Of a DNA stretch of 64,000 nt, positions 3,200-20,203 are shown piece by piece; positions within the stretch are counted from its first letter, which is position 1; every line of letters begins with the position of its first letter. A program made the translations under genes and the position numbers. Source of the stretch: Cladosporium halotolerans (taxonomy: Eukaryota); the NCBI RefSeq assembly GCF_011745625.1, contig NW_027191459.1, positions 372,001-436,000 on the forward strand, read 5' to 3'. The notes beneath the pieces are model-generated. The model worked only from the letters and a program-made list of their open reading frames with translations, searched no databases and was not told the origin of the DNA.

Positions 3200-5376
3200 A
3201 TGCCAGACTTCACGGACAACCTCAAACCGGCCGAACCATCAGGTCCATCGATCCTTGCTAAAGAACGCGGGCAATCAGACGTCCCAGTCGAAGAGCTTTC
3301 AAAACACCTCCTATCCAGCAACGGCTTTCTAGAACGACAAGCTCGCATCTTACCGATTCTGGAAAATGACCGTCTGTTCAGCAAAATCAAGCAAATGAAC
3401 CTCTCTAGACCAGAACGATATCACCTGGGACTTGCTCGAGCAAAAAAGCTACGACGACTCGCAGACCAGCATGGATGGGACCAAGATGATCACGACATGG
3501 CTGCCTACCTCTGTGATGACGTGAGCCCTTACATGGTTCATGTAGCCATGTTCATCACCACAGTCAAAGAACAGGGAAGTGACGAGCAAAGAGCTTATTG
3601 GATGCCGAAGATCAACAGCTGGGAAGTGATCGGGTGTTACGCTCAGTAAGTCCACTCTTCGCAATCAAAAGATGTGATCTGATGTTTGCTGCAGGACAGA
3701 ACTGGGCCACGGGAGCAACGTCCGCGGCATCGAATGCCAGGCACGCTGGTCGCCTGAGACGCAAGAGTTCATCATCCACAGCCCAACACTTACCGCCAGC
3801 AAATGGTGGAACGGCACCATGGGCCGCACAGCGAACCACGCTATAGTCGTCGCACAGCTAATGGTGCCGAAGTCGCGAAACTCCAAGGAGTTAGTCAGTC
3901 ACGGTCCGCATCCCTTCATTGTCCAGATCCGGGACATGAAGACTCACAAACCTCTGCCGGGAATCGCCGTTGGCGACATTGGCCCGAAGTACGGCTATGC
4001 GCCGATGGACAATGGTTACATGCTGTTCGATAACGTTAGGGTGCCGCACAACGCTATGTTGTCCAAGTATTCGTGGGTTGACCCGAATACTTGCACTTAT
4101 TCCAAGCCTTCGAATCCGGCCGTGGTGTACGGAAGCTTGACTGCCGTTCGAGCGAGCATTGTAATGCACGCTCGTCTTGTGCTCGCGCGCGCAGTCACTA
4201 TCGCAGTGCGCTACACTGCCATCCGACGGCAGTTTGCAGACCGAGACGATCAGTCAAAAGCAGCACCTGAGTTGTCAGTGCTCGATTACCGTATGTTTGC
4301 AATGCTGTCTGACATTTGAAACACGCCCTGCTGACAATGATTTTACAGCAACTGTTCAGATCCGCATATTGCCCCTGCTGGCGACAGCCTTCGCGTTGCA
4401 CTACACTGGCTCTGCCATGCAAGCCTTGTACCAGCGAACACGAGCAGACATCTCGAAAGGCGACTTCAGTAGACTTGCCGAGCTTCACAGCCAATCTTCG
4501 GGTCTGAAAAGCTTGTGCACAGACTACGCAGCCAACGGTATCGAGACTTGCCGTCGTGCGTTAGGCGGTCATGGGTTCGGCGGCGGATCAGGACTTATCC
4601 AGCTGAATTCAGATTACCTCTCAAAGCCGACAGTCGAGGGCGACAATTGGATGATCACGCAGCAGACTGCCAGTTACCTTATCAAGCGAATGGCAGCCGC
4701 AGAAGCTGGCAAGGGAGAACCGATCGACGAGGTTGAGCGATCATCCCGCGAATATCTCGCAGCGAAAAATCAGCTCTCTTCAGAGGACTTTAGAGTCCTC
4801 CGATCTGATGCTGACATTGTGTCAGCCTTCAAGAGGCGCTCAAGATACCTGACGTATGTCGCGTATGCTCAGCGCAACAAGGAAAACAAATCTTGGAACG
4901 ACCTTCTGCTCTTGCTGCGGAAGGTCTCAGTAGCCGAGTCTGAGTCTTTGCTCGTGGCGAACTTCCACATTGCTCTGGTTTCAAACGACGCAGGCTTGTC
5001 ATCGCAGTCGAAGAAACATCTCGAGAGGCTCTTCCGCCTCTACGCATACTACACCATGGACGCAAGCGCACGTGACTTCGCGAAAGCGCAGGCGGCCTCG
5101 GACAAGGACCTAGATCGCTTGCCCCATGTGATCCAGGATCTCATGGCACAGGTCCGCCCGCATGCTGTGAATCTGGTGGACGCATGGTGCATCCCAGACT
5201 TCTTGCTTGACTCGGCACTTGGTAGATACGATGGGAAGGTGTACGAGGACTTGTTCAACCGCGCACACAGGCTGAATCCGCTGAACGAGATCACGTTCAA
5301 TTCGGACTATCGCAGCGAGGAGATTGTGAGAGGCGGCGATGGGAAGGAGCTGGACAGGATACTTGCGAAGCTGTAG
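3200..5376 (+). CDS. Peroxisomal acyl-CoA oxidase (3 exons; introns 3646-3694, 4291-4348)
   Basis: Spliced IGCYAQ|TELGHGSNV, KWWNG, GDIGPKYG, AVRYTAIRRQF and CRRALGGHGF motifs; C-terminal PTS1 -AKL. Confidence 0.95.
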
Positions 5377-10477: not shown

Positions 10478-10779
10478 CAAACAAGACCGTCTCCCCTTCC
10501 CTCCAGGGAATTAAGTCTTTTCTAATAAAGCGGGCACACGTGTGAAGTCGCAACAAAGCCGCGGTAGACGACCTTGATACACGACCGGATGACCAAAAGC
10601 GCAGCCAGGGTTCGCGCTCGCGCTCTCGCAAGCTGCAAGCCCACCGACCGGCCGCGCCGCGGCCGAGCTCGCGCGCATGATATCACCGCCTGCCTACCTT
10701 ACCCAGCTACGCTCCGCGCCCTCCCTCCCCCAAAACAACACAGCATGTAATACCCAAGACAGCCACGACCAGAAACACC

Positions 10780-11619
10780 ATGGCCCCAATCCGCCGCTAC
10801 CTGCGCATAACGAAATTCTCCGTCCTCGAAGTGCGCATCTACCCGGAGCAGCCCGCGGACGCGCCCTGGCTGCTCTCGAGCCGGGATCCCGTGCTGCCGC
10901 GCGTGCTCGACGAGGTGCGCCCGCTCGTGCTGCCCAAGCTGCGCGAGGAGAACGAGAACGCGCGCAAGAAGGGCGGCAAGAAGAAGAAGGGCATCAGGGA
11001 TGTCGCGGCGGGGGAGGACTTCGAGGTCGTGATGTTTTTGACGGAGGGCATGGCGAGGCATTCGATTGTTACGCGCGGGAGGGTTGCCGAGGAGGAGGAG
11101 GGGAGGGGGAGGCTGAGGAGTTCGGGGAAGGGGTTGGCGGGGTGGTTGAATAGTGGGGTTCGGGGGGAGGCGATTACGGTGGAGGATGATGAGGAAGGGG
11201 AGAGGGCGCTGGGGGATATTCCTGAGTTTGGAGGGGGCGGGGGGAAGAGGAGGGCCGGGGAGGAGGGTGAGGCGCTGTTCGTGAGTTCGGATGATGAGAC
11301 GGTTCGGACGCAGCGTTCGAAGCGGCGCAAGCGGACTACGAGGCAGCACAGGGGGCGCGACAGCGACGAAGAGGACAATGTGGAAGCGGCCGAGCCGGCG
11401 GATGAAGACGACAAGAAGAAGCTGGCGCTCAAGACGTCCTACGACGGCTTCAGCATCTACGGCCGCATCCTCTGCCTGATCGTCAAGCGCAAGGGAAAGA
11501 AGGCCGCCTCAAGCGCCGCAGCCGCGCCCGTCGCCGGCGGCAGCCAGATGATGGAGAACTGGGTCAGCACGCAAGTCGCGCAGGAGGCCGGTCTGCAGGA
11601 CGACGACGAGGATGGGTGA
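10780..11619 (+). CDS. Fungal hypothetical protein (279 aa, basic/acidic, likely nuclear)
   Basis: Intronless ORF with strong context (caccATGG), biased codon use and NLS-like KKGGKKKKG and RSKRRKR. Confidence 0.8.
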   Translation: MAPIRRYLRITKFSVLEVRIYPEQPADAPWLLSSRDPVLPRVLDEVRPLVLPKLREENENARKKGGKKKKGIRDVAAGEDFEVVMFLTEGMARHSIVTRGRVAEEEEGRGRLRSSGKGLAGWLNSGVRGEAITVEDDEEGERALGDIPEFGGGGGKRRAGEEGEALFVSSDDETVRTQRSKRRKRTTRQHRGRDSDEEDNVEAAEPADEDDKKKLALKTSYDGFSIYGRILCLIVKRKGKKAASSAAAAPVAGGSQMMENWVSTQVAQEAGLQDDDEDG

Positions 11620-14600
11620 AAGACAGGCGAGATGCGCACGCGCGCGCGCGCCGATTTGGTTGTTTCCCCGCCGACCCGGCTTCAATCTCTGTGAAACGTC
11701 TTCTACCTGATACTGGCGACATGCACGCCATATGTACATGTCATGCACGACAGGGACGGCGCTTGTCGTGCAGAACGCAGCGTGTCAACCTGCGACCTTC
11801 ACGCAATCGCGGTGGGGTCCTGTCAATCTGATACTGGCGTGAAGATGCGAGCTTAGCGTGTGTAGCAGGATGTAGTGGGCCATTGCTCGCTTGGTGAAGG
11901 TGAAAATACGCGATGTTAGCCGACGTTCGCACGAAGATCAAAGAATTGATGCGAAAATACTGCCGACCTGCCTGTCGTTCCTTAACGAAAAGAGGCACCG
12001 AACGACAGCGTCACGGAGTTGATTCGGCGTGGGGATCATCAATGCTCCGTGCGAACTCGGCCAGGATTGCGATCTTCGAACCGGGGGATTTTTGGAATGC
12101 CGAGGAAACTGGGATTGTAGAACGATCGCATGGCAAGTGCCGTGAGCTTTGAACGACACGGACGATACGAACGAAGAAAAGAAAATTCTTAGTGCTAGTC
12201 AGACGGCAAAAGCATCTAGGAAACCTGCTCAGAATATGGCATCATTTCGCTAGCACACAGCCTGGGCCTTTCTGTCACGGCGTCACAAAACCTGTTTGTG
12301 ACAGTGCTTGGCGGTAAACCGCGTTGCTCGTGGATCGTAGATATTCGTATGCCCCGCGGCCATCCGCGTCCTGCCATGCCTGCGGGCATTGGCAACGGCG
12401 GGAGTGCAGGATCGTGAAAGCAAAACGAGAAGGATGCCCAAAAGCCAACGCGTTCTTGCGACGTCATGGATGGGAAAGTTTGGAAAGACAGAAAGGCTGT
12501 CTCCTCGAATAGTGCGAGCTTGCGGAGTCAAATGGGCCTTGGGCAGCGAGGGCAGCACCCGCTGACTACTGCGCGTCGTACATACATGGCAACGGCGTGA
12601 CGGTTTGAAGGTCAGCAGGGCTGTGCTGGTCGAGCTGGTGACAAAGTGTTCTACCAAAACCTTGGGATGCGAGCCTGCCCAAACGTCGGCGCGTAACGTC
12701 GATTTCGCTCAGCTACGCGTAATAGCGAGGCGAGCAGTATAGGGAGCGGACGGGAGATCCAGTGGTTGGTAGCGTGGCTGAGGAGCGCGCTCCGCGGCGA
12801 TCATCGCTCCTTGCGCCATGAAATTTCTCCAAGAGGCAACTGGGACTGGTCGTCCACGCACACATGACGGCTGTCTGAGCCGTTCCGCCCAGCAAATACG
12901 AGCAGGTGCCGTGGTGTTCGCAGACGGTACCGACGCGGCGGCGCTGCGGTGGGTTTGGAAGGATTTACGGTGTGAAACAGGCGTCGTCGAATGGCATGGC
13001 AGAACGGGCGTCTGCATGTTCGTGGCACAGGTGGTGGTGTGCCGTCTGGCGTGCGATCCCGATTCGGTTCACAACTTGCCTGTTCCTGTGCCGTCTCGAC
13101 GTGGGATGCCGCAGGCTGCCGTGGGCTGCCACATTTGCAAACCGTATTCGCATAGTCGATGACCACGATGATAGCGCCGCAATGCGCCAGCCGACCGTAT
13201 ACGTGGCTTTTCAGACGATTGGTGATGCGCAGACTGCTAGGGCCGAGCGGCCGATAGCCTTGTCAGTATTGAGGCTAATGGCTGGGCAGATCCAGGATCG
13301 AGCAGCGCGAGGCACCCGACCCTTCGGTTGCGCGACGTTTGTGATCTATTCATGGAGGGGACGGTCGTGTCGCCGTGATGGTGAGAAGATTAATCATGAC
13401 AGCCACGCGAGAGTTTTGGCAGCCTAAGGGCATCGTAAGGGCATCACCACACCAGGCACGCAGCGGATTTGGAGGCCGCGGCTGGAGAGATGAAACGGGC
13501 CTTCAGCCTCGCACTAAGCCAGTCCTTCCGCGGAGTGGGATGGTCAATTAATCATGCGCAGAGCAATCAATGCACAATTTGCGCGGCACTGAAACTGTGA
13601 CAAGCCAGCTGGTTTGCAACACACACCAGAAGCTTCTCCCTCAATAACGCGGTTCGTGGTGGATACTAGGTGAGGCGATCTGTGAGGGCTCCATCGCAAC
13701 GCACAGCCGACACGACACGATCAGCAGGGGCGCGCAGCCGGGGCAGACGACGATGCGCGGATTGACAGGAGAGCATGCCACGGCGTGGTCTCACGTCGCC
13801 CTGCCGACGCTCCGACACGCGACCCTTTGCGCACCCGCAGAGCGACACCGCTCGACGTGCTGATGTCAGGCCCCGGACTATCGAAATGCTGTCTCTGGCA
13901 TTATTGGTGCGGCCGTCGCCAAGTTTTGTCACGCCCGCTTCTAAAAGGGGCACGAGGGGCTCTCGTCGACCCACTGCTCTCACTCCTCCCGCCGGTGGGC
14001 GCTTGCAGGGGTACCGGGGTTGGCGGCCACGTGCCAGCGCCGCCCGTGCCCGAACTCACGGCGGCATGCGGGCGCTGCTTGCTGCATGCTTAGCCGGCAG
14101 ATGCGCCAGTCAGACGCCTCCCGCGCAGCAAATGAACACTCGATACGCTACGACATGGCCGGTCAGTCCTGGCGACCGTTGTCCCGCCGCCCGTACCTGC
14201 CTGGCGGTAACGCATGGCGTTCGGCATCAGGCCAACGTTTGATGCTTTCCCAGCGTCTGACGGCGTCTGGCGTCTCGGCTCTCGCCTGGCAACATTCGAG
14301 CCCGCGCCAACAAAGCAGCCTGCGAGCGCCACTGGCGGTCTGTCTTCTCGAAGGCAGATCATTCGCAGACCGCCACCGCGCGACCGGGGACGCACTTCTT
14401 CTCCCGCTCTTCTCCCGCCAGTCGTGCAATGAAAGCTCGGCCGCATGCTGCACCGCGAGCCTCACGCCCAATTTGCCACTCGAACCATTCGTCGCGAGCG
14501 GACCGGGGTCCATTAGTCAACCGAGGCAGCCGGGGCCTGAAACTTGCAGCAGATCTGGTGCGCCCGCCCTCGCGCAGAAGAAAATAACGAGACGTTTGGG

Positions 14601-15695
14601 ATCGCGAGTCCCTTGACCCACTGCCCCTGGGCACGGTGGACGTCCAGCGCCAGGCGCAAGGCCAGTGTTTCGGGCTGCCCGCGGGCGCCCGCGTGTTCGC
14701 ATGGCCGAGCAAACTCTGTTCCTGTCACCGTGCTTGTGGCACACGCTTTTGACTTTTGTGCCTGCATGGCTCACATCGCCCGCGCCGGCGATCAGGGTTC
14801 TTGGTGCTCGTGTTCGCACCACCGCTACTGGCGGTGGTGAGACACGCAGCCGCGGCACTCCGCCTGGAGCCGTTGCCTCTGCCACGCTGCAGAGCGACTA
14901 TCGGGGAGATCGCGCGGGCGTATAGCGGTCGAGCGTCTATAATGGAGCGTTTGCGCCACGGTACTTACCGCGGTGGCTCTGCGGATGATGCGTGCAAGCA
15001 CGCGTCCCGCGGCCTCGCCGGCCGGCTGGTCGAAGACTGCTGAAACTCTCGCGACGGCTAGTGCTGACCGCGGGCATGGGCGGCACCGCATTGATCTGGC
15101 GGGCGTGTCATGTGCGAGGGCGGGCGGGAGGCTTGCGTCTGGAGAGCAGGCGTGGGCAGGCGGCTGCGCTGTCAGCCCTGCGCGGAGTCAGACGCCCGCC
15201 AGTTTTAGCCCCGGCCAGCGAGCGGCGGCTGCTGCTGGGCGCTCGGCCTCCTATTCCCAGGCACCACCTGAGCAGCAGGCACAGCGCAGGCTCAGGCTCA
15301 GGCACGGGCAGGCACACGGCCGCCCTCACCGCCCGCGCGGATCCAGGGCTAGTTGCCTTGGTCTGCCGTGCTTGCATCATGGGAAATGACGCCCTGCGCT
15401 GACCACGCCCGCGCTCGCCAGCTATATCTATTCCGGAGCCCTCCTGCACTCCTCCTGCCCGCCCTACCATCCAACCAACCAACTTACCACCGCCAGCACC
15501 AGCCTGCCGCCGCCAGCTACGACGTCTCACATCGGCCTCTAATACCACACCTCATCCGCTACCACGGGCTACTCTCCTCTCTTCCGAGATCTCCAACGCC
15601 AACGTCTGCTGCTGCCGGCCTCCCTCGCTGCAGCCAACCGCCACCCACCACCACTACCCCTCCGTCGACTACTCCAGTCGTCACCAAACATCACA

Positions 15696-15767
15696 ATGCC
15701 TGCCGCCAGCTTTCCGCCCTGCCCTGGCCCTCCCCCCACCAGGCCGCTGCCTCCTCTCCCCAAATGA
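15696..15767 (+). CDS. Candidate 23-aa proline-rich micropeptide MPAASFPPCPGPPPTRPLPPLPK
   Basis: Strong fungal Kozak context (acatcacaATG); first ATG after a TATA-like site (~15423) and a ~300-nt ATG-free C-rich leader; contains class I SH3 ligand RPLPPLP. Confidence 0.6.
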   Translation: MPAASFPPCPGPPPTRPLPPLPK

Positions 15768-17077
15768 GCGCGCAATGGTGCACCACGCCCTCTCGCGCCC
15801 TAGGCCCACTGCCGGCGGAGGACCACGCTACATCGCCCATGAACGATCACGGCTCTCTTCTCTCACGACATCGATCATCGATATCTCGGTCGTTATCACA
15901 GCGTCCACGACTTCGATCACCATTTTTTGGCTGCCTCCAGCCCTGGACGTCGATCAAGCCATTGACCACTCCACCCGCGCGTTTGCCGCGCTGCCCACGC
16001 TGATTGGCTCCGCACTCGGCCCCAGGCAGCCCCATCCCACGCCGGGCGTGAATCACACATGGCCGCCCAACTCCACTCGCTTGCATCGCATTTGCATGCC
16101 TGCGCTACTCAGCTATCTCTCGCATCTGCGCAGTCCATCCCGCCTACCCACTGCCAGCTTGCATGTGACCAGGCAGGCCTGTCACCTCACTGAGTCATCG
16201 ACGTCGCCTTTCTATCCCGTCTACTCGTCACCACCCGCTCTCACCGCCCGGTGCTTTCGGTCACTATTACACCATTCTAATCGACTCTTACTCCGCTCGG
16301 AACTTCCACGTCAAGCGTGGCTGCTGGACAGTTTCCGAGGCTTTCTCCCTGCTCCCCCGTCTGTGGGGCTTGCAGCATTTATCTTTTTGTAATGGGTGCA
16401 GTGTTCCTACAAGGGCGCACCACCCCGGGCTTGACCATCGTCGCTCGCTCTTTCTATTCCCTTTCGTTCATGGAGTTTGGCATCGGATGGATATATACCC
16501 AATGGCTGCAGCAGCATACATGCGCGCCTCATCTTGATAGTACCTTTTAGTATCTACTGCCGAGCTTTTAGGCTCGTTTTTCATCTACCCAATCTTCTTT
16601 CATCATCTCCACAACTCTGTCTCCGCTCTCATGTCATGTCTCGATGGTGTTGGGCTCCATCACGAAATAACCTTCGCTCAGCAGGTCTGGGTTGCGTCCA
16701 GCCCGCTTAATCACCACGCGGCTCGGCGTGTACAACCGTCCGCATCCGCAAGCATGCTATCAAACCTTTTATTCAGTCAAAGCTTCCATCACACATCTGA
16801 TACACGAAGGACGATTGTCTAGATCTTTGTGTCGAAGGCGGTCTTCCCATTCGAATCACCGCTCGTCGCCCCGCTAGGGTTGGCGGAACGCTGATTATCA
16901 AGCGTGATGGCTGTGACATCACAACTTTGATGGCGATCTCATTGGAGACTTCAAGACGGGCATAATCTAATGTCTGCATCTATTTGATCAATTAAGCAGT
17001 GTTTGTGCTCGTTGTTGAAACAGCTAGGAAGTTTTCGAAGAATCCAGGCCAAATCCGTCACAAAAGGAATCATCATC

Positions 17078-18164
17078 ATGTCTCTGCAAGGACAGGTCGC
17101 GCTTCTGGTATTGAGGCCCAATCTCCGACCTACCTGACTTGGATTCCCTGAGTACTGACCTTCGCAACCAGACCGGGGCCTCCATGGGCATTGGCGAAGC
17201 ATGCGCTTTCGCATTGGCAGAGCAGGGCGCCAATCTCGTGCTCGTCTCAAGATCAGCTGTACAGTTCCAATTCATAGTAGCCGTCTAGACCCATTGATAC
17301 CAACACCCGCCAGGACAAGCTATCCGCTCTGCAAAAGAAGCTTCAAGATGCCCATCCCAAGAGCAAGATCATCTACAAAGCAGCCGACGTCGGCGACTAC
17401 CAAGCCGTCGACGCAGCCGTCGCCTCCGCCGTCGAACAGCTCGGCAAAATCGACATCCTCATCAACAATGTGAGCAGCATAATCCGGCATCCTCATGCTC
17501 TGAGAACACCACCACCCGAACAAAAAAACTAACCAACCCCACCAGGCCGGCCTCGCCCTCAACGCCCCCTCCCCCTTCCACGCCCTCCCCGTCTCCGCAA
17601 TCGACACCATGAACGCCACCAACGTCTCCGGCTACATGTACGCCGCGCACGCCGTCCTCAACCGCGCCATGCTCTCCCCCTCCGCCAGCGGCCGCGGCAC
17701 CATCCTCAACATCACGTCCACGACCGCCCACGAAGCCCCGCCCTTCCCCGGCGAGGCCGTCTACCACGCCAACAAAGCCTGCCAGGAGGGCTTCACGAAC
17801 TCGCTGCGGAACGAGCTGAGCGGCACGGACGTGAGGGTCCTGGCGCTGAGGCCGGGCGTCGTCGCGGGGCATTTTCATCGGCAGAGGGTTGGCGGGGATG
17901 AGGGGGCTTACGAGGGGTTTATGGAGGGGTTTGAGTATGCCTTGCTATCCGATAGCGTGGAGTCCCCTGTTGTTGTTGAGAGTGGAAAGCTGACGTGATG
18001 TGATTTGCAGGCCGCTTGTTGCTGAAGAAGTCGCGAAATCGGCTGTTTGGGTGTTGTCGCAGCCGGAGAAGATTTCGATCAAGGCGTTGGATGTTGTGCC
18101 GTCGGCGCAAAGGAGTTTGAATGTTTTTGATAGGAAGTGGAATGAGAGGCATCAGGACGCCTAG
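17078..18164 (+). CDS. Short-chain dehydrogenase/reductase (YdfG/YMR226C-like 3-hydroxyacid dehydrogenase type), 5 exons
   Basis: Spliced VALL|TGASMGIG, IDILINN|AGLAL and catalytic YHANK; four GT-AG introns; stop at 18162-18164. Confidence 0.88.
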
Positions 18165-18804
18165 ATCGTGGCTTGGATGCTGCGATCTCTCTTACATTGA
18201 ACAGATAGATACGAGCGCGCGAGAACATAGTGTATGGATAATTCCCTACCATCTCCACATGGAATTCATTTGCGATGTTGGAAATGGGAAAAGCCTAGTG
18301 AACGAAGACTGAAGAGCATTTTGGTTCGTTTTGTGAGTTCGAAAAGGATAGTCATTTGAATGTGCGTACCCTATCGTCTGTTGTATATTTCACTTGCCGC
18401 GTGCACGGGCCACATCCACGGCACACAAGCTGAGCCAACTCGTCCTCCATCCCGCGCACGTCAGAGGCTCCTCGCCAGCCGAGTCGCTACAGCAAACATG
18501 CACACTAATAAGCCCAGCATTTGACTTCGCCTGCGCATCTACCACCGACACCCACCGCGACCAAAGCATGCGCTTTTGTTGTCACGGTCTCCTTCTGCCG
18601 CGCTCCACAGCGCCTGCTGCTCCACGATGAGTGAATGAACGAGAAACTCCGCAACCCGCGCATGGAACCTTCCGCGCATGCCATAGCACCACGGAACCCT
18701 GATCAAGCATTCCATATGAACATCCTTTGACGTCCTCGCGGCGACACAGAAAATCCCAAACATCCTTACGATCGCTCCCCAACACACTGCGAAACCCCGC
18801 CGCT

Positions 18805-20203
18805 ATGCAGCGCAACCCTCGCTCTCGCCCCGTGTCGCAGCACGGCGCTTCGCCCGCCGCCGGACAGCCGCAACAGGGCAGAAAAGTGTTCAATTGCATC
18901 GTCGACGACACCGCCCTCGTGGCCGGTGTGAAAAAGAGCACGCGCAATGGTATCAGGCAGTGGGTAAAGAACGGGCAGATCCGGCTTTTCGTGCCGCTTC
19001 ATGGTATGCTTGGAACCGGGTGAACAACAAGAAGCGTGCCGATCGCGCAGGCGCTGACTATATTTCTAAGCCCTCGAACAACTCAGCCGCCAGAAGGGCG
19101 CAAGTAACCGTCATGGTGAGGACGTGCGCGACACGCTAGAATGGCTCGACGACGCGACTTCGAAATACCCGCATATAGTCACCTTGCAGGGCGCTGAAGA
19201 GACGTACGAGAATTGGTCTGAGGTGGAGCAGTTCGCCGTACCTCGTAGCTTGTTCTCTGAGGCGGATCATGCAAGCGTCGACGAAGACGATCACAGCACC
19301 TCTCAGCTCGAGGAGCAGACCGCACAGAAATTGACCCTGTCGGAGCCGAAGCGGAAGGGCTCCATGAGCTCGAACGCAACTGCTTCCGCGCACTCTGACG
19401 CGCCGTCGTCAATGGAGAGTGTCCGCTCGAGCCTCAGTGCTGTCTCTCCGCCCACGTCGCCTCTCAAGCCTCTGGCATCCAGAGGCAATGAAGCGGTCTC
19501 CAGCGGTAAATCCAATGGTCAGCTCTCCAACAGCGGAAGCGTGCCTGTTCGCCTTCAGCCTCTTTTCAACTACATTCTCTGGCGTATCCATCAGGAAATC
19601 AACCCCGCGGCGGCACTGGAGACCTTCATCTTCCTCTGCAACGATCCCTCGAAGACGAATGCCGCGAAAGGATTCGACATTCGCAGTAAGCGCCTTGAGC
19701 AACTTCGTGATGTCGTTGGTCGTGAGGACCGCGAGTACAGAAACCGCCTGAGCGTACTGAATATGGAAGGCCAGCAGCAAAATGCGACTGCACCAGCCGC
19801 GAACAACACCAAAGCACCGAAATCCCCGCCGACTGCCCCGGCCGCTATGCTCGGTCAGCAGGGTGCAGTGATGGATCCTGATGCCTTCAGCCGCACCGTC
19901 CAGGCTCCCAACAAATCCACCCCAGCTGCTCCGTCGAGCCCGCGGGCAGCCCACGCCCAGCCCGGCCGTGGTGCTTCTCGAGGCAACTTCCGCGGCAGCC
20001 CTCGTGGCAGAGGCGGCTTCGCCAACGGCCCTGCTGCCGCCAACCGCGGCGGGTATAGTTCTCCAGCGGCTCGCCGCGGTGGGGCTGCTGCTGCTGCGCA
20101 GATGGACGGCCAGATCGATCCCAACAGCTTCGAGCGTCCGCGTGGCGGATATACTGGACGTGGCGGCGCTGCTGCCGGGAGGAAACTTTGGGTTCCCACT
20201 TGA
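18805..20203 (+). CDS. PIN-like domain protein with C-terminal RGG-rich tail (intron 19004-19070)
   Basis: N-terminal CIVDDTAL...LFVPLH|ALEQL fits the PIN pattern (hhDT...hhhP..hh.EL); later FLCND; RGG repeats at the C-terminus. Confidence 0.75.

Follow-up and report, generated by a model that had tools for sequence, protein, structure and literature searches.

The window analysed here is a stretch of 64,000 nucleotides from Cladosporium halotolerans. It contains a gene-poor gap of about 5.5 kb (estimated before at about 5.4 kb), which begins where the upstream gene ends (~11619) and extends to a short-chain dehydrogenase gene (~17115). The original prediction placed in this gap a dedicated gene for a micropeptide, described as little more than an SH3 ligand. 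Two questions are raised by this locus: whether such a short ORF is a real gene, and what its product might do.

The sequence elements which had been described are all present. A TATA-like box (CTATATCT, 15422–15429, plus strand) is located 274 nt 5' of an ATG at 15696, which has the context atcacaATGc and is the first ATG downstream of the box and of a C-rich leader: No ATG is found by scanning positions 15423–15695. This ATG opens an ORF of 23 codons plus TGA (15696–15767, plus strand, with the stop codon at 15765–15767), whose product would be MPAASFPPCPGPPPTRPLPPLPK. The C content is 47% in the leader and 53% in the micro-ORF, and GC skew lies between -0.22 and -0.52 in the windows spanning 15250–16449. 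The peptide has 12 prolines in its 23 residues, a PPP run among them, and ends in PLPPLPK. Residues 16–22, RPLPPLP, agree with the class I SH3 ligand pattern [RK]xΦPxΦP.

By itself, a Pro-rich ORF is not above chance in this window. The six-frame translation has 99 occurrences of the [RK]xxPxxP pattern, which is also present in 15 of the 740 short ATG ORFs; the strict RPLPPLP string is found only once in the same survey. The micro-ORF is far above chance because its start, frame, stop and peptide are conserved in relatives, as described below. No match was obtained in Rfam and tRNA scans of 10–22 kb, nor in Pfam with all long frames of 10.6–16.4 kb, and no SH3 domain was found among the 38 window ORFs which were scanned.

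The micro-ORF is part of a transcript. Sequences from this stretch are represented in 20 runs from 15 studies. Most of these runs share about 0.5 of the sampled words, a value which is read as the ~98% identity of relatives, as the contigs show, and not as half a transcript. Contigs from three studies (X13, X1 and X6) cover approximately 15477–16602 colinearly, micro-ORF included, with no splicing. X13 is an RNA run, and X1 and X6 are labelled as RNA by guess; X1 has GT..AG joints in the neighbouring genes and is hence RNA. The transcribed unit has some 1.1 kb (15477–16602) and is unspliced; the contigs are strand-blind, and its assignment to the plus strand would follow from the TATA box and the ORF. 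The X13 and X6 contigs share the start position 15477, which points weakly to where transcription starts. The RNA-run contigs end at 16508–16602, in agreement with the UTR-like tail of ~0.8 kb which had been proposed. The three studies have no RNA cover at 11903–15213 and 16719–17019. These flanks serve us solely to control for DNA carry-over in the covered part; they do not count as evidence that the flanks are silent or that the RNA ends there, and contig depth has not been taken as an expression rank.

An orthologous metagenome locus, L001, allows the coding region to be compared. It has an identical ATG, frame and TGA, and the 21 nt which include the start context and the ATG (15682–15702, plus strand, with A at -3) are identical. 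Its counterpart of the TATA-like box, ATATATGTATTC, lies ~270 nt before its ATG, a distance read off the ruler. Peptide identity is 19/23 in the micro-ORF frame and 7/22 in each of the other frames. There are 19 base differences, distributed by codon position as 2/3/14 (sd 14, nd 5), so that dN/dS is ~0.05; this ratio is rough, with synonymous sites near saturation (pS 0.71), and it rests on one independent DNA pair (the window vs L001/L002). When 19 substitutions were placed 50,000 times in a neutral simulation, none of the trials gave four or fewer residue changes. Of the 17 core codons, 11 have synonymous differences and one has a conservative replacement, L to V. Beyond the stop codon, the alignment with L001 is near-random.

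Two more lineages (P0002 and P0003), known solely from out-of-frame ORF calls which we have threaded onto the window, present the same picture: Third to first position changes are 11:1 and 10:0 within the ORF, against 4:4 and 2:3 after the stop codon. The ~98% identical relatives have a single synonymous change in the ORF (15713 T>C), too little variation for power. The comparisons with L001 and with the threaded lineages show purifying selection in the micro-ORF's own frame.

The 3' untranslated tail (15768–16602, plus strand) is mostly unconserved with respect to L001, except for small islands in the alignment at 16190–16202 (which contains TGAGTCA), 16490–16534 and 16571–16585. Two ORFs of 205 amino acids have been rejected as genes. 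The start of the first one (15386–16003) lies upstream of both TATA box and RNA contigs, and the conservation of its apparent homologues (P0001–P0003) is confined to its overlap with a conserved leader block and the micro-ORF. The second one (15775–16392) is frame-broken in the 98% identical relatives, which have a 2-nt indel at 16054 and a 1-nt indel at 16235, and it has no match in L001; a tblastn search of 15768–17100 against L001 gave no match either. A long non-coding RNA was also rejected, since a conserved ORF is present. The proposed architecture, with a TATA box, an ATG-free leader, a micro-ORF and a long 3' tail, agrees with both the RNA contigs and L001.

The micro-ORF belongs to a family. 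Besides L001 and L002, it is kept in 34 further ORF calls from databases: Our searches gave 11 + 10 + 24 hits, corresponding to 34 distinct proteins, all of them with the core. This is an ascertained sample, since a member could be recovered only if its frame had by chance been picked by a gene caller. The members have unrelated upstream parts; what they share is the motif ΦPPCPGPPPx[R]PLPPΦP, which corresponds in the window to FPPCPGPPPTRPLPPLP (codons 6–22, 15711–15761, plus strand), with a ΦPPCPG half and a class I RPLPPLP half. A somewhat looser pattern, ΦPPCPGP[PA]P...P[LI]P[PR]ΦP, is kept in 35/35 sequences, with 18 distinct cores. The boundaries are also kept: 33 of the 35 full-core sequences have a Met 5–11 residues before PCPGP and a stop 1–7 residues past the motif, and a purine opens the codon before the Met (-3) in 34/34. 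Peptide length is 23–32 residues. Tails from the core to the stop (K, SK, KQG and similar) have one residue in 12 sequences, two in 10, three in nine, four in one and seven in one.

The two halves of the core are not equally constant. PPCPG and its Cys are invariant (35/35). On the other hand, the class I motif [RK]PΦPPΦP is kept in 28/35 members; the position of the Arg anchor has R in 26 sequences, K in two, G in five (four of them with K one position earlier) and C in two. The non-Pro core residues (Φ, C, G, L and mostly R) are conserved as strongly as the prolines.

Named members come from four orders of Sordariomycetes (Hypocreales, Glomerellales, Xylariales and Amphisphaeriales) and include major plant pathogens. 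Start, stop and the 17-residue core are kept over these four orders, yet normal annotation has missed the gene, and the few database entries of the family are mislabelled or "hypothetical". A search of the main texts of a limited set of journals did not find the motif PPCPGPPP in print; it gave no report on microproteins in Sordariomycetes and, by title or abstract, no relevant work on SH3 micropeptides in fungi. Within this scope, the family appears to be previously undescribed; it is conserved across Sordariomycetes. Bulk protein databases, through their out-of-frame ORF calls, can also be mined in this way to test whether ORFs too small for gene callers are conserved.

The micro-ORF is a real, transcribed small gene, and a strongly conserved one by the comparisons above. 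The idea of a dedicated micropeptide gene below gene-calling cut-offs is thus strongly supported by the transcript and by frame-specific conservation; a lack of amino acid conservation or of a transcript, named beforehand as grounds for giving it up, is not what we have found. That the ORF arose by chance, within a promoter region or a non-coding RNA rich in C, for which it may be said that C-rich DNA easily gives Pro-rich ORFs and that class I-like motifs abound in the six frames, is extremely improbable given the frame-specific conservation, the synonymous-only divergence and the 35 sequences with a common start, core and stop, and it appears already refuted unless the compared loci prove to be non-orthologous.

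As for its function, our best explanation is the following. An unspliced RNA of ~1.1 kb, driven by the TATA box, would have an AUG-free leader of ~220 nt; its first AUG, in a strong context, would open the 23-codon ORF, followed by a largely unconstrained 3' UTR of ~0.8 kb. The product would be an unfolded peptide of the polyproline-II type with the invariant core ΦPPCPGPPPxRPLPPΦP, which most likely acts in trans: it would be a short linear motif standing free of any larger protein and docking on a proline-recognition domain. The best candidate partner would be a class I SH3 domain, whose normal ligands the peptide would compete with or bridge. In the window's clade, a longer isoform of ~67 amino acids is probably also made, from a conserved ACG in an optimal context located 132 nt upstream. 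We hold this reading as a whole (a genuine micro-gene, a trans-acting SH3-type linear motif and an ACG isoform in the clade) with moderate confidence.

AlphaFold2 gives no fold (pTM 0.16). The 44 C-terminal residues have neither helix nor strand, and pLDDT is highest (~81–82) over the last ~19 residues.

Two known ligands resemble the second half of the core. Residues 93–99 of Pbs2 from Saccharomyces cerevisiae, KPLPPLP, are a type I motif (+PΦPPΦP) bound by the SH3 domain of Sho1, and K instead of R is the sole difference from the RPLPPLP of the window. The settings differ: Pbs2 is a large MAP kinase kinase of which the motif is one small part, while here it forms about one third of a free-standing product of 23 amino acids and is joined to another element, the invariant ΦPPCPG. 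VSL12 (VSLARRPLPPLP) is a ligand of Src-family SH3 domains obtained by phage display, in which the RPLPPLP core forms an SH3-binding polyproline-II helix. Its heptad is identical to that of the window peptide; being synthetic and selected on animal kinases, it indicates what the motif is capable of, not the partner of the fungal peptide.

A role as an SH3 ligand is plausible from the motif, but it leaves the invariant PPCPG half and its Cys unexplained. The action first suggested, as an SH3 decoy in Sho1/HOG signalling or on polarity adaptors, is a hypothesis. The description as little more than an SH3 ligand is too narrow, because the ΦPPCPG half is the most conserved one of the 17-residue block, 7/35 members do not have the Arg anchor, and in the window's clade translation of the frame seems to begin further upstream.

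Several small fungal ORFs with other roles look similar. The arg-2/CPA1 attenuator peptide and the uORFs sensitive to polyamines or eIF5A have ~24 codons, with conserved amino acids, at the first AUG of RNAs with long leaders; Pro-rich sequences need eIF5A, and there is a literature on eIF5A, polyproline, uORFs and polyamines. The micro-ORF shares with them a conserved peptide of about this size at the first AUG. Unlike them, it has no conserved main ORF after it, and we have rejected it as a uORF since no conserved downstream ORF is found in the transcript; its distance from the core to the stop is also variable. A cis-acting regulatory peptide, whose proline-dense nascent chain (PPCPGPPP...PLPPLP) stalls ribosomes depending on eIF5A, polyamines or proline, is for us an unlikely explanation. 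The 12 prolines with their PPP run would fit it, arrest peptides are likewise conserved at the amino acid level, and the dehydrogenase gene, 1.35 kb downstream on the same strand, follows the micro-ORF in L001 too. Such a stall might act on the stability, or on some other function, of the RNA which carries it or of a rare read-through transcript extending to the dehydrogenase gene. However, the fixed spacing from core residues to stop expected of an arrest peptide is not found: It goes from one to seven residues, unlike that of termination-stall peptides, and the non-Pro residues are as conserved as the prolines.

Precursor genes for lipopeptide pheromones (mfa-1/ppg2 type) have ORFs of 23–26 codons which start with MP, much longer RNAs and a long 3' UTR. 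The micro-ORF is likewise small, begins with MP and belongs to an RNA which far exceeds it in length and has an extended 3' UTR. Unlike them, its Cys is internal and there is no CaaX box; we have rejected a pheromone precursor, since a CaaX C-terminus is found neither in the peptide nor in any family member.

If the peptide acts in trans, its partner might not be an SH3 domain. It might be a WW domain (PPLP is a WW-type motif class, and a PPLP-like unit is found within PLPPΦP) or another polyproline reader, or else the Cys might provide the function through lipid anchoring, redox or metal binding. The invariance of PPCPG and the Cys, together with the loss of the SH3-defining Arg in some members, would favour such a partner or chemistry. 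Nothing points positively to any particular alternative, however: No relative was found in Pfam, no hit was obtained with the family profile in the PDB sequence search (0 hits at E up to 10), and the ESM Atlas gave no usable hit. We consider this explanation rather improbable.

The case for an N-terminal extension is compatible with our best explanation. The candidate extension (15564–15695, plus strand) starts with ACG at 15564–15566, in the context ACCACGG common to the window and L001, and is in frame with the micro-ORF; this frame is stop-free from 15543. From 15558 to 15617 (20 codons) there are 6 synonymous and 0 non-synonymous changes with respect to L001 (p~3e-4). The frame survives a 3-nt indel, third to first position changes in block plus linker are 13:3 among the threaded relatives (p~0.011), and P0004 has the same block, in frame. 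This block, which changes only synonymously, suggests an ACG-initiated isoform of ~67 amino acids in the window's clade. A precedent is the conserved ACG start (NCC8) of cpc-1 in Pezizomycotina, which is reported to initiate in vitro. Both have an AUG-free, stop-free, in-frame extension with a conserved ACG in a good context; unlike that of cpc-1, the candidate extension appears to be conserved only within the window's own clade.

The ~67-amino-acid protein could even be the main functional product in this clade, with the 23-amino-acid peptide just its C-terminal part. This is a possibility worth keeping in mind, although we think it doubtful. The wider family lacks the extension, and the linker (15618–15695) is almost neutral with respect to L001 (dN/dS ~0.67). 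In addition, a 36-nt leader block (15557–15592, plus strand) is identical in L001 even at synonymous sites, which suggests a constraint at the RNA or DNA level instead; its predicted RNA fold was not significant (z -1.19), with no covariation.

Returning to the trans-acting SH3-type motif, a more specific version may be put forward quite tentatively, and we would not expect it to hold in full. An ancient Sordariomycetes gene would code for a motif-only peptide of 23–32 amino acids, containing ΦPPΦP twice, together with the invariant Cys, docking on an SH3 domain (of Sho1 type or of a tandem-SH3 adaptor) and tuning signalling or polarity by competition; the ACG isoform would add an N-terminal module in some lineages. 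Should the peptide prove to be a docking motif on its own, nature would provide here a case of pathway control by a gene which codes for a linear motif only, and an SH3-mediated step of signalling in fungi would become directly accessible through it. Microproteins of filamentous fungi are almost uncharted. The part of a 2024 review drawn on here (PMC11413187) names only scattered yeast cases, the fungal examples it describes coming for the most part from work with S. cerevisiae. Among them is Nrs1 of budding yeast, a partner-titrating microprotein. Like microproteins of this type, ours would be a small product standing alone, for which the rewiring of a pathway through binding is proposed; unlike them as that source presents them, it consists of a linear motif and not of a small domain, and its family spans a fungal class.

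Further upstream, four short islands are exact matches colinear with L001, all on the plus strand: a 13-mer (15169–15181, CTGTCAGCCCTGC) and a 12-mer (15198–15209, GCCAGTTTTAGC) with L001 3594–3628, and two 10-mers (15352–15361, GTTGCCTTGG; 15382–15391, GGAAATGACG) with L001 3712–3741. They may have a promoter function. As a separate observation on the N-terminal block, LFR-like strings can be seen by eye in P0010, P0012 and P0028, which might indicate a wider conservation of this block.

The micro-gene is very probably real and coding. Its micro-ORF (15696–15767, + strand) has 23 codons and a TGA at 15765–15767, and the product is MPAASFPPCPGPPPTRPLPPLPK. A TATA-like box, read from the sequence, is found at 15422–15429 on the + strand (CTATATCT), the leader from 15423 to 15695 contains no ATG, and the ATG at 15696 is the first one after the box, in the context atcacaATGc, with an A at -3. 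C content is 47% in the leader and 53% in the micro-ORF, with GC skew between -0.22 and -0.52 across the windows that cover 15250–16449. The TATA-like site, the ATG-free C-rich leader and the 23-codon ORF of the original prediction are all present as claimed.

The orthologous locus is found in two metagenome contigs, L001 and L002, which were retrieved with an alignment of out-of-frame ORF calls and are a near-identical pair (alignment score 3473 for 3475 nt). Positions 4057–4131 of L001 correspond to MPGVTFPPCPGPPPTRPLPPVPTK, with the same start context and a TGA end. In-frame, 19 of the 23 residues are identical, against 7 of 22 in either of the two remaining frames. There are 19 base differences, distributed as 2/3/14 over codon positions 1/2/3: 14 are synonymous and five non-synonymous (pS 0.71, pN 0.10), which gives a dN/dS of ~0.05, a rough figure because synonymous sites are near saturation. 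When the 19 substitutions were placed neutrally, none of 50,000 placements gave four or fewer residue changes. The 17-codon core shows 11 synonymously different codons and a single conservative change (L to V). Two database ORF calls, P0002 and P0003, were threaded onto L001, a procedure to which second-position changes are mostly invisible. Third:first-position changes are 11:1 and 10:0 in the micro-ORF (pooled 21:1, p~5e-6), and 4:4 and 2:3 past the stop. The alignment with L001 3' of the stop is at background level, except for small islands at 16190–16202, 16490–16534 and 16571–16585.

Gene order is kept between the window and L001: upstream gene, gap, micro-ORF, dehydrogenase. By translated match, window 10681–11619, where the upstream gene has its 3' end, corresponds to L001 3–404. 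A gap of 3.65–4.08 kb without window/L001 likeness precedes the micro-ORF, and the dehydrogenase (window 17115–18161, L001 5449–6486) lies 1.3–1.4 kb beyond it. The gene past the dehydrogenase is inverted in L001 (6981–7451) relative to the window (19070–20200).

The micro-gene stretch is present in 20 of the 24 listed public sequencing runs, from 15 studies. Most have about half of the sampled 31-mers, since their contigs come from relatives which are 95–99% identical, as seen in four runs aligned over 11000–20000. Contigs of X13 (recorded metatranscriptomic RNA), X1 and X6 (both RNA by guess) span ~15477–16602, colinear with the genome and without any joint; the strand is not readable from them. 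X1 is RNA, since its contigs have GT..AG joints in neighbouring genes (17258/17314, 17469/17546 and 19002/19070), which place introns at 17259–17313, 17470–17545 and 19003–19069. X15, probably source DNA, gives even coverage of the full 9 kb. The flanks of 15477–16602 have no RNA contigs, which serves only as a control for DNA carry-over, not as a sign of silence. The X13 and X6 contigs start alike at 15477, ~50 nt past the TATA-like box, and contigs stop at 16508, 16560 and 16602, which hints weakly at where the RNA begins and ends. Lack of amino acid conservation or of a transcript had been named as grounds against the micro-gene; we find 19/23 residues conserved and RNA contigs along it.

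A profile of in-frame translations gave 11 matches among 1.84 billion representative proteins, and a motif alignment gave 10 matches at near lengths and 24 at longer lengths in a collection of 5.8 billion clusters. Combined, they amount to 34 distinct proteins, including P0004, which ends at a contig edge inside the core; the full-core set, window and L001 included, has 35 sequences. All 35 contain ΦPPCPGP[PA]P-x-x-P[LI]P[PR]ΦP (Φ, hydrophobic residue); the cores take 18 distinct forms and the whole peptides 31. A Met 5–11 residues ahead of PCPGP and a stop 1–7 residues past the motif are found in 33 (at most three residues in 31); in three MPAM... peptides the second Met was scored. The codon before Met is purine-initial in 34 of 34 family sequences. 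Conservation begins at the start codon, because sequences 5' of Met are unrelated between lineages. The two exceptions, P0020 and P0033, have the motif inside longer ORFs and may represent variant architectures that do not belong to the main family; P0033 also has a second, degenerate copy upstream (SACSGPLPHRPLPHLP). No family member contains a Pfam domain. Named members, which represent four orders in two subclasses of Sordariomycetes, are from Colletotrichum asianum (37 aa), Biscogniauxia mediterranea (69 aa), Seiridium cupressi (125 aa) and Fusarium oxysporum f. sp. albedinis (three entries, two labelled 'Enolase' and 'AC9 transposase'). Fusarium oxysporum-type genomes have several different copies with diverged leaders (P0011, P0015, P0017, P0028); two NCBI entries carry the wrong names 'Enolase' and 'putative AC9 transposase'. 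The string 'PPCPGPPP' was not found in the main texts of the papers searched, and the family appears to be undescribed, as far as our searches reach.

Regarding function, the reading we prefer, at about even probability, is that the micro-ORF is translated into an unfolded polyproline peptide which would act in trans, docking on a proline-recognition domain (we infer a class I SH3 domain as the most likely) and there competing with or bridging its ligands. AlphaFold2 predicts no fold for the 69-residue in-frame translation (pTM 0.16): there is a short helix in the block upstream, no helix or strand across the C-terminal 44 residues, and a pLDDT peak of ~81–82 in the last ~19. In the Src SH3 ligand VSL12, RPLPPLP has been described as the polyproline-II core, and the type I motif KPLPPLP of Pbs2 (residues 93–99) as bound by the Sho1 SH3 domain. 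A scan of 38 ORFs from the window finds no SH3 domain. The SH3-decoy function originally suggested may be considered a good hypothesis.

A polyproline peptide might instead act in cis, as an eIF5A-sensitive stalling peptide. We consider this unlikely: core-to-stop spacing is variable, and the conserved main ORF that defines a uORF is missing, since no translated frame of 15768–17100 matches L001. A non-SH3 partner or Cys-centred chemistry is improbable to a similar degree. The most invariant element is the ΦPPCPG half, with Cys in 35/35, a feature that SH3 binding leaves unexplained; [RK]PΦPPΦP is kept in 28/35, the Arg position being Gly in five (four with Lys one position earlier) and Cys in two. 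The core may also be viewed as a pair of ΦPPΦP units, ΦPPCP and ΦPPΦP, with G-PPP-x-R-P linking them. Sequence alone does not set the micro-ORF apart from chance: the six-frame translation of the window has 99 matches to [RK]xxPxxP, a pattern found in 15 of the 740 ATG ORFs with 10–100 codons, and a single strict RPLPPLP. A chance ORF is nevertheless extremely improbable, and the RNA contigs, the in-frame selection seen against L001 and the 35-sequence family strongly support the claim of a dedicated micropeptide gene.

A longer, upstream-initiated isoform translated in the clade of the window is possible, though less likely than not. The micro-ORF frame is open, without any ATG, back to a TAA at 15540–15542. 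In its favour, the block at 15558–15617 (ATTGYSPLFRDLQRQRLLLP) has six base differences from L001, all synonymous (p~3e-4), a 3-nt indel preserves the frame, and P0004 has the block in frame. An ACG at 15564, in ACCACGG, is present in both the window and L001; a conserved, functional ACG start has been documented for cpc-1 of Pezizomycotina. In the threaded relatives, third:first-position changes are 13:3 over block and linker (p~0.011), and 5' of the block the frame is not maintained, P0002 being frame-shifted there against L001. Against the isoform, the linker (15618–15695) is near-neutral (dN/dS ~0.67) and the wider family shows no such extension; also, the 36 nt at 15557–15592 are identical to L001 even at would-be synonymous sites, with no significant RNA fold and no covariation.

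Two longer ORFs of 205 aa were rejected as genes. That at 15775–16392 is broken in close relatives by a 2-nt deletion at 16054 (X13, X1, X6) and a 1-nt insertion at 16235 (X13, X6), and that at 15386–16003 begins 5' of the TATA box. As a search probe, the latter gave three Logan-derived ORF calls; the distant P0002 and P0003 conserve only two islands, nt ~15557–15601 and the start context with the first micro-ORF codons.

The window itself is unremarkable, GC-rich fungal chromosomal DNA, with short GT..AG introns and genes for acyl-CoA oxidase, NAPRTase, an ABC transporter, a P450 and short-chain dehydrogenases. The micro-gene is separated from the upstream gene by ~3.3 kb of GC-rich DNA (0.51–0.71) at 11900–15210, unusually large for a fungal intergenic stretch, conserved in position and not in sequence: it has no Pfam match, no likeness to the equivalent 3.65-kb gap of L001 and no RNA contigs. 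One X1 contig tracks the window to the base after the micro-ORF stop (15768), followed by 145 unlike letters, and may be a second allele or copy, splitting exactly at the end of coding. The dehydrogenase gene of the X1 relative also has, at 17677, a 9-nt insertion that keeps the frame. In the otherwise unconstrained 3' tail, CTGAGTCAYCGAC at 16190–16202 is conserved in L001; it includes TGAGTCA, which resembles an AP-1/Gcn4-type site, and may be part of the downstream dehydrogenase promoter. Four short promoter islands within 15169–15391 are exact in L001 (CTGTCAGCCCTGC, GCCAGTTTTAGC, GTTGCCTTGG and GGAAATGACG) and are candidate transcription-factor sites.
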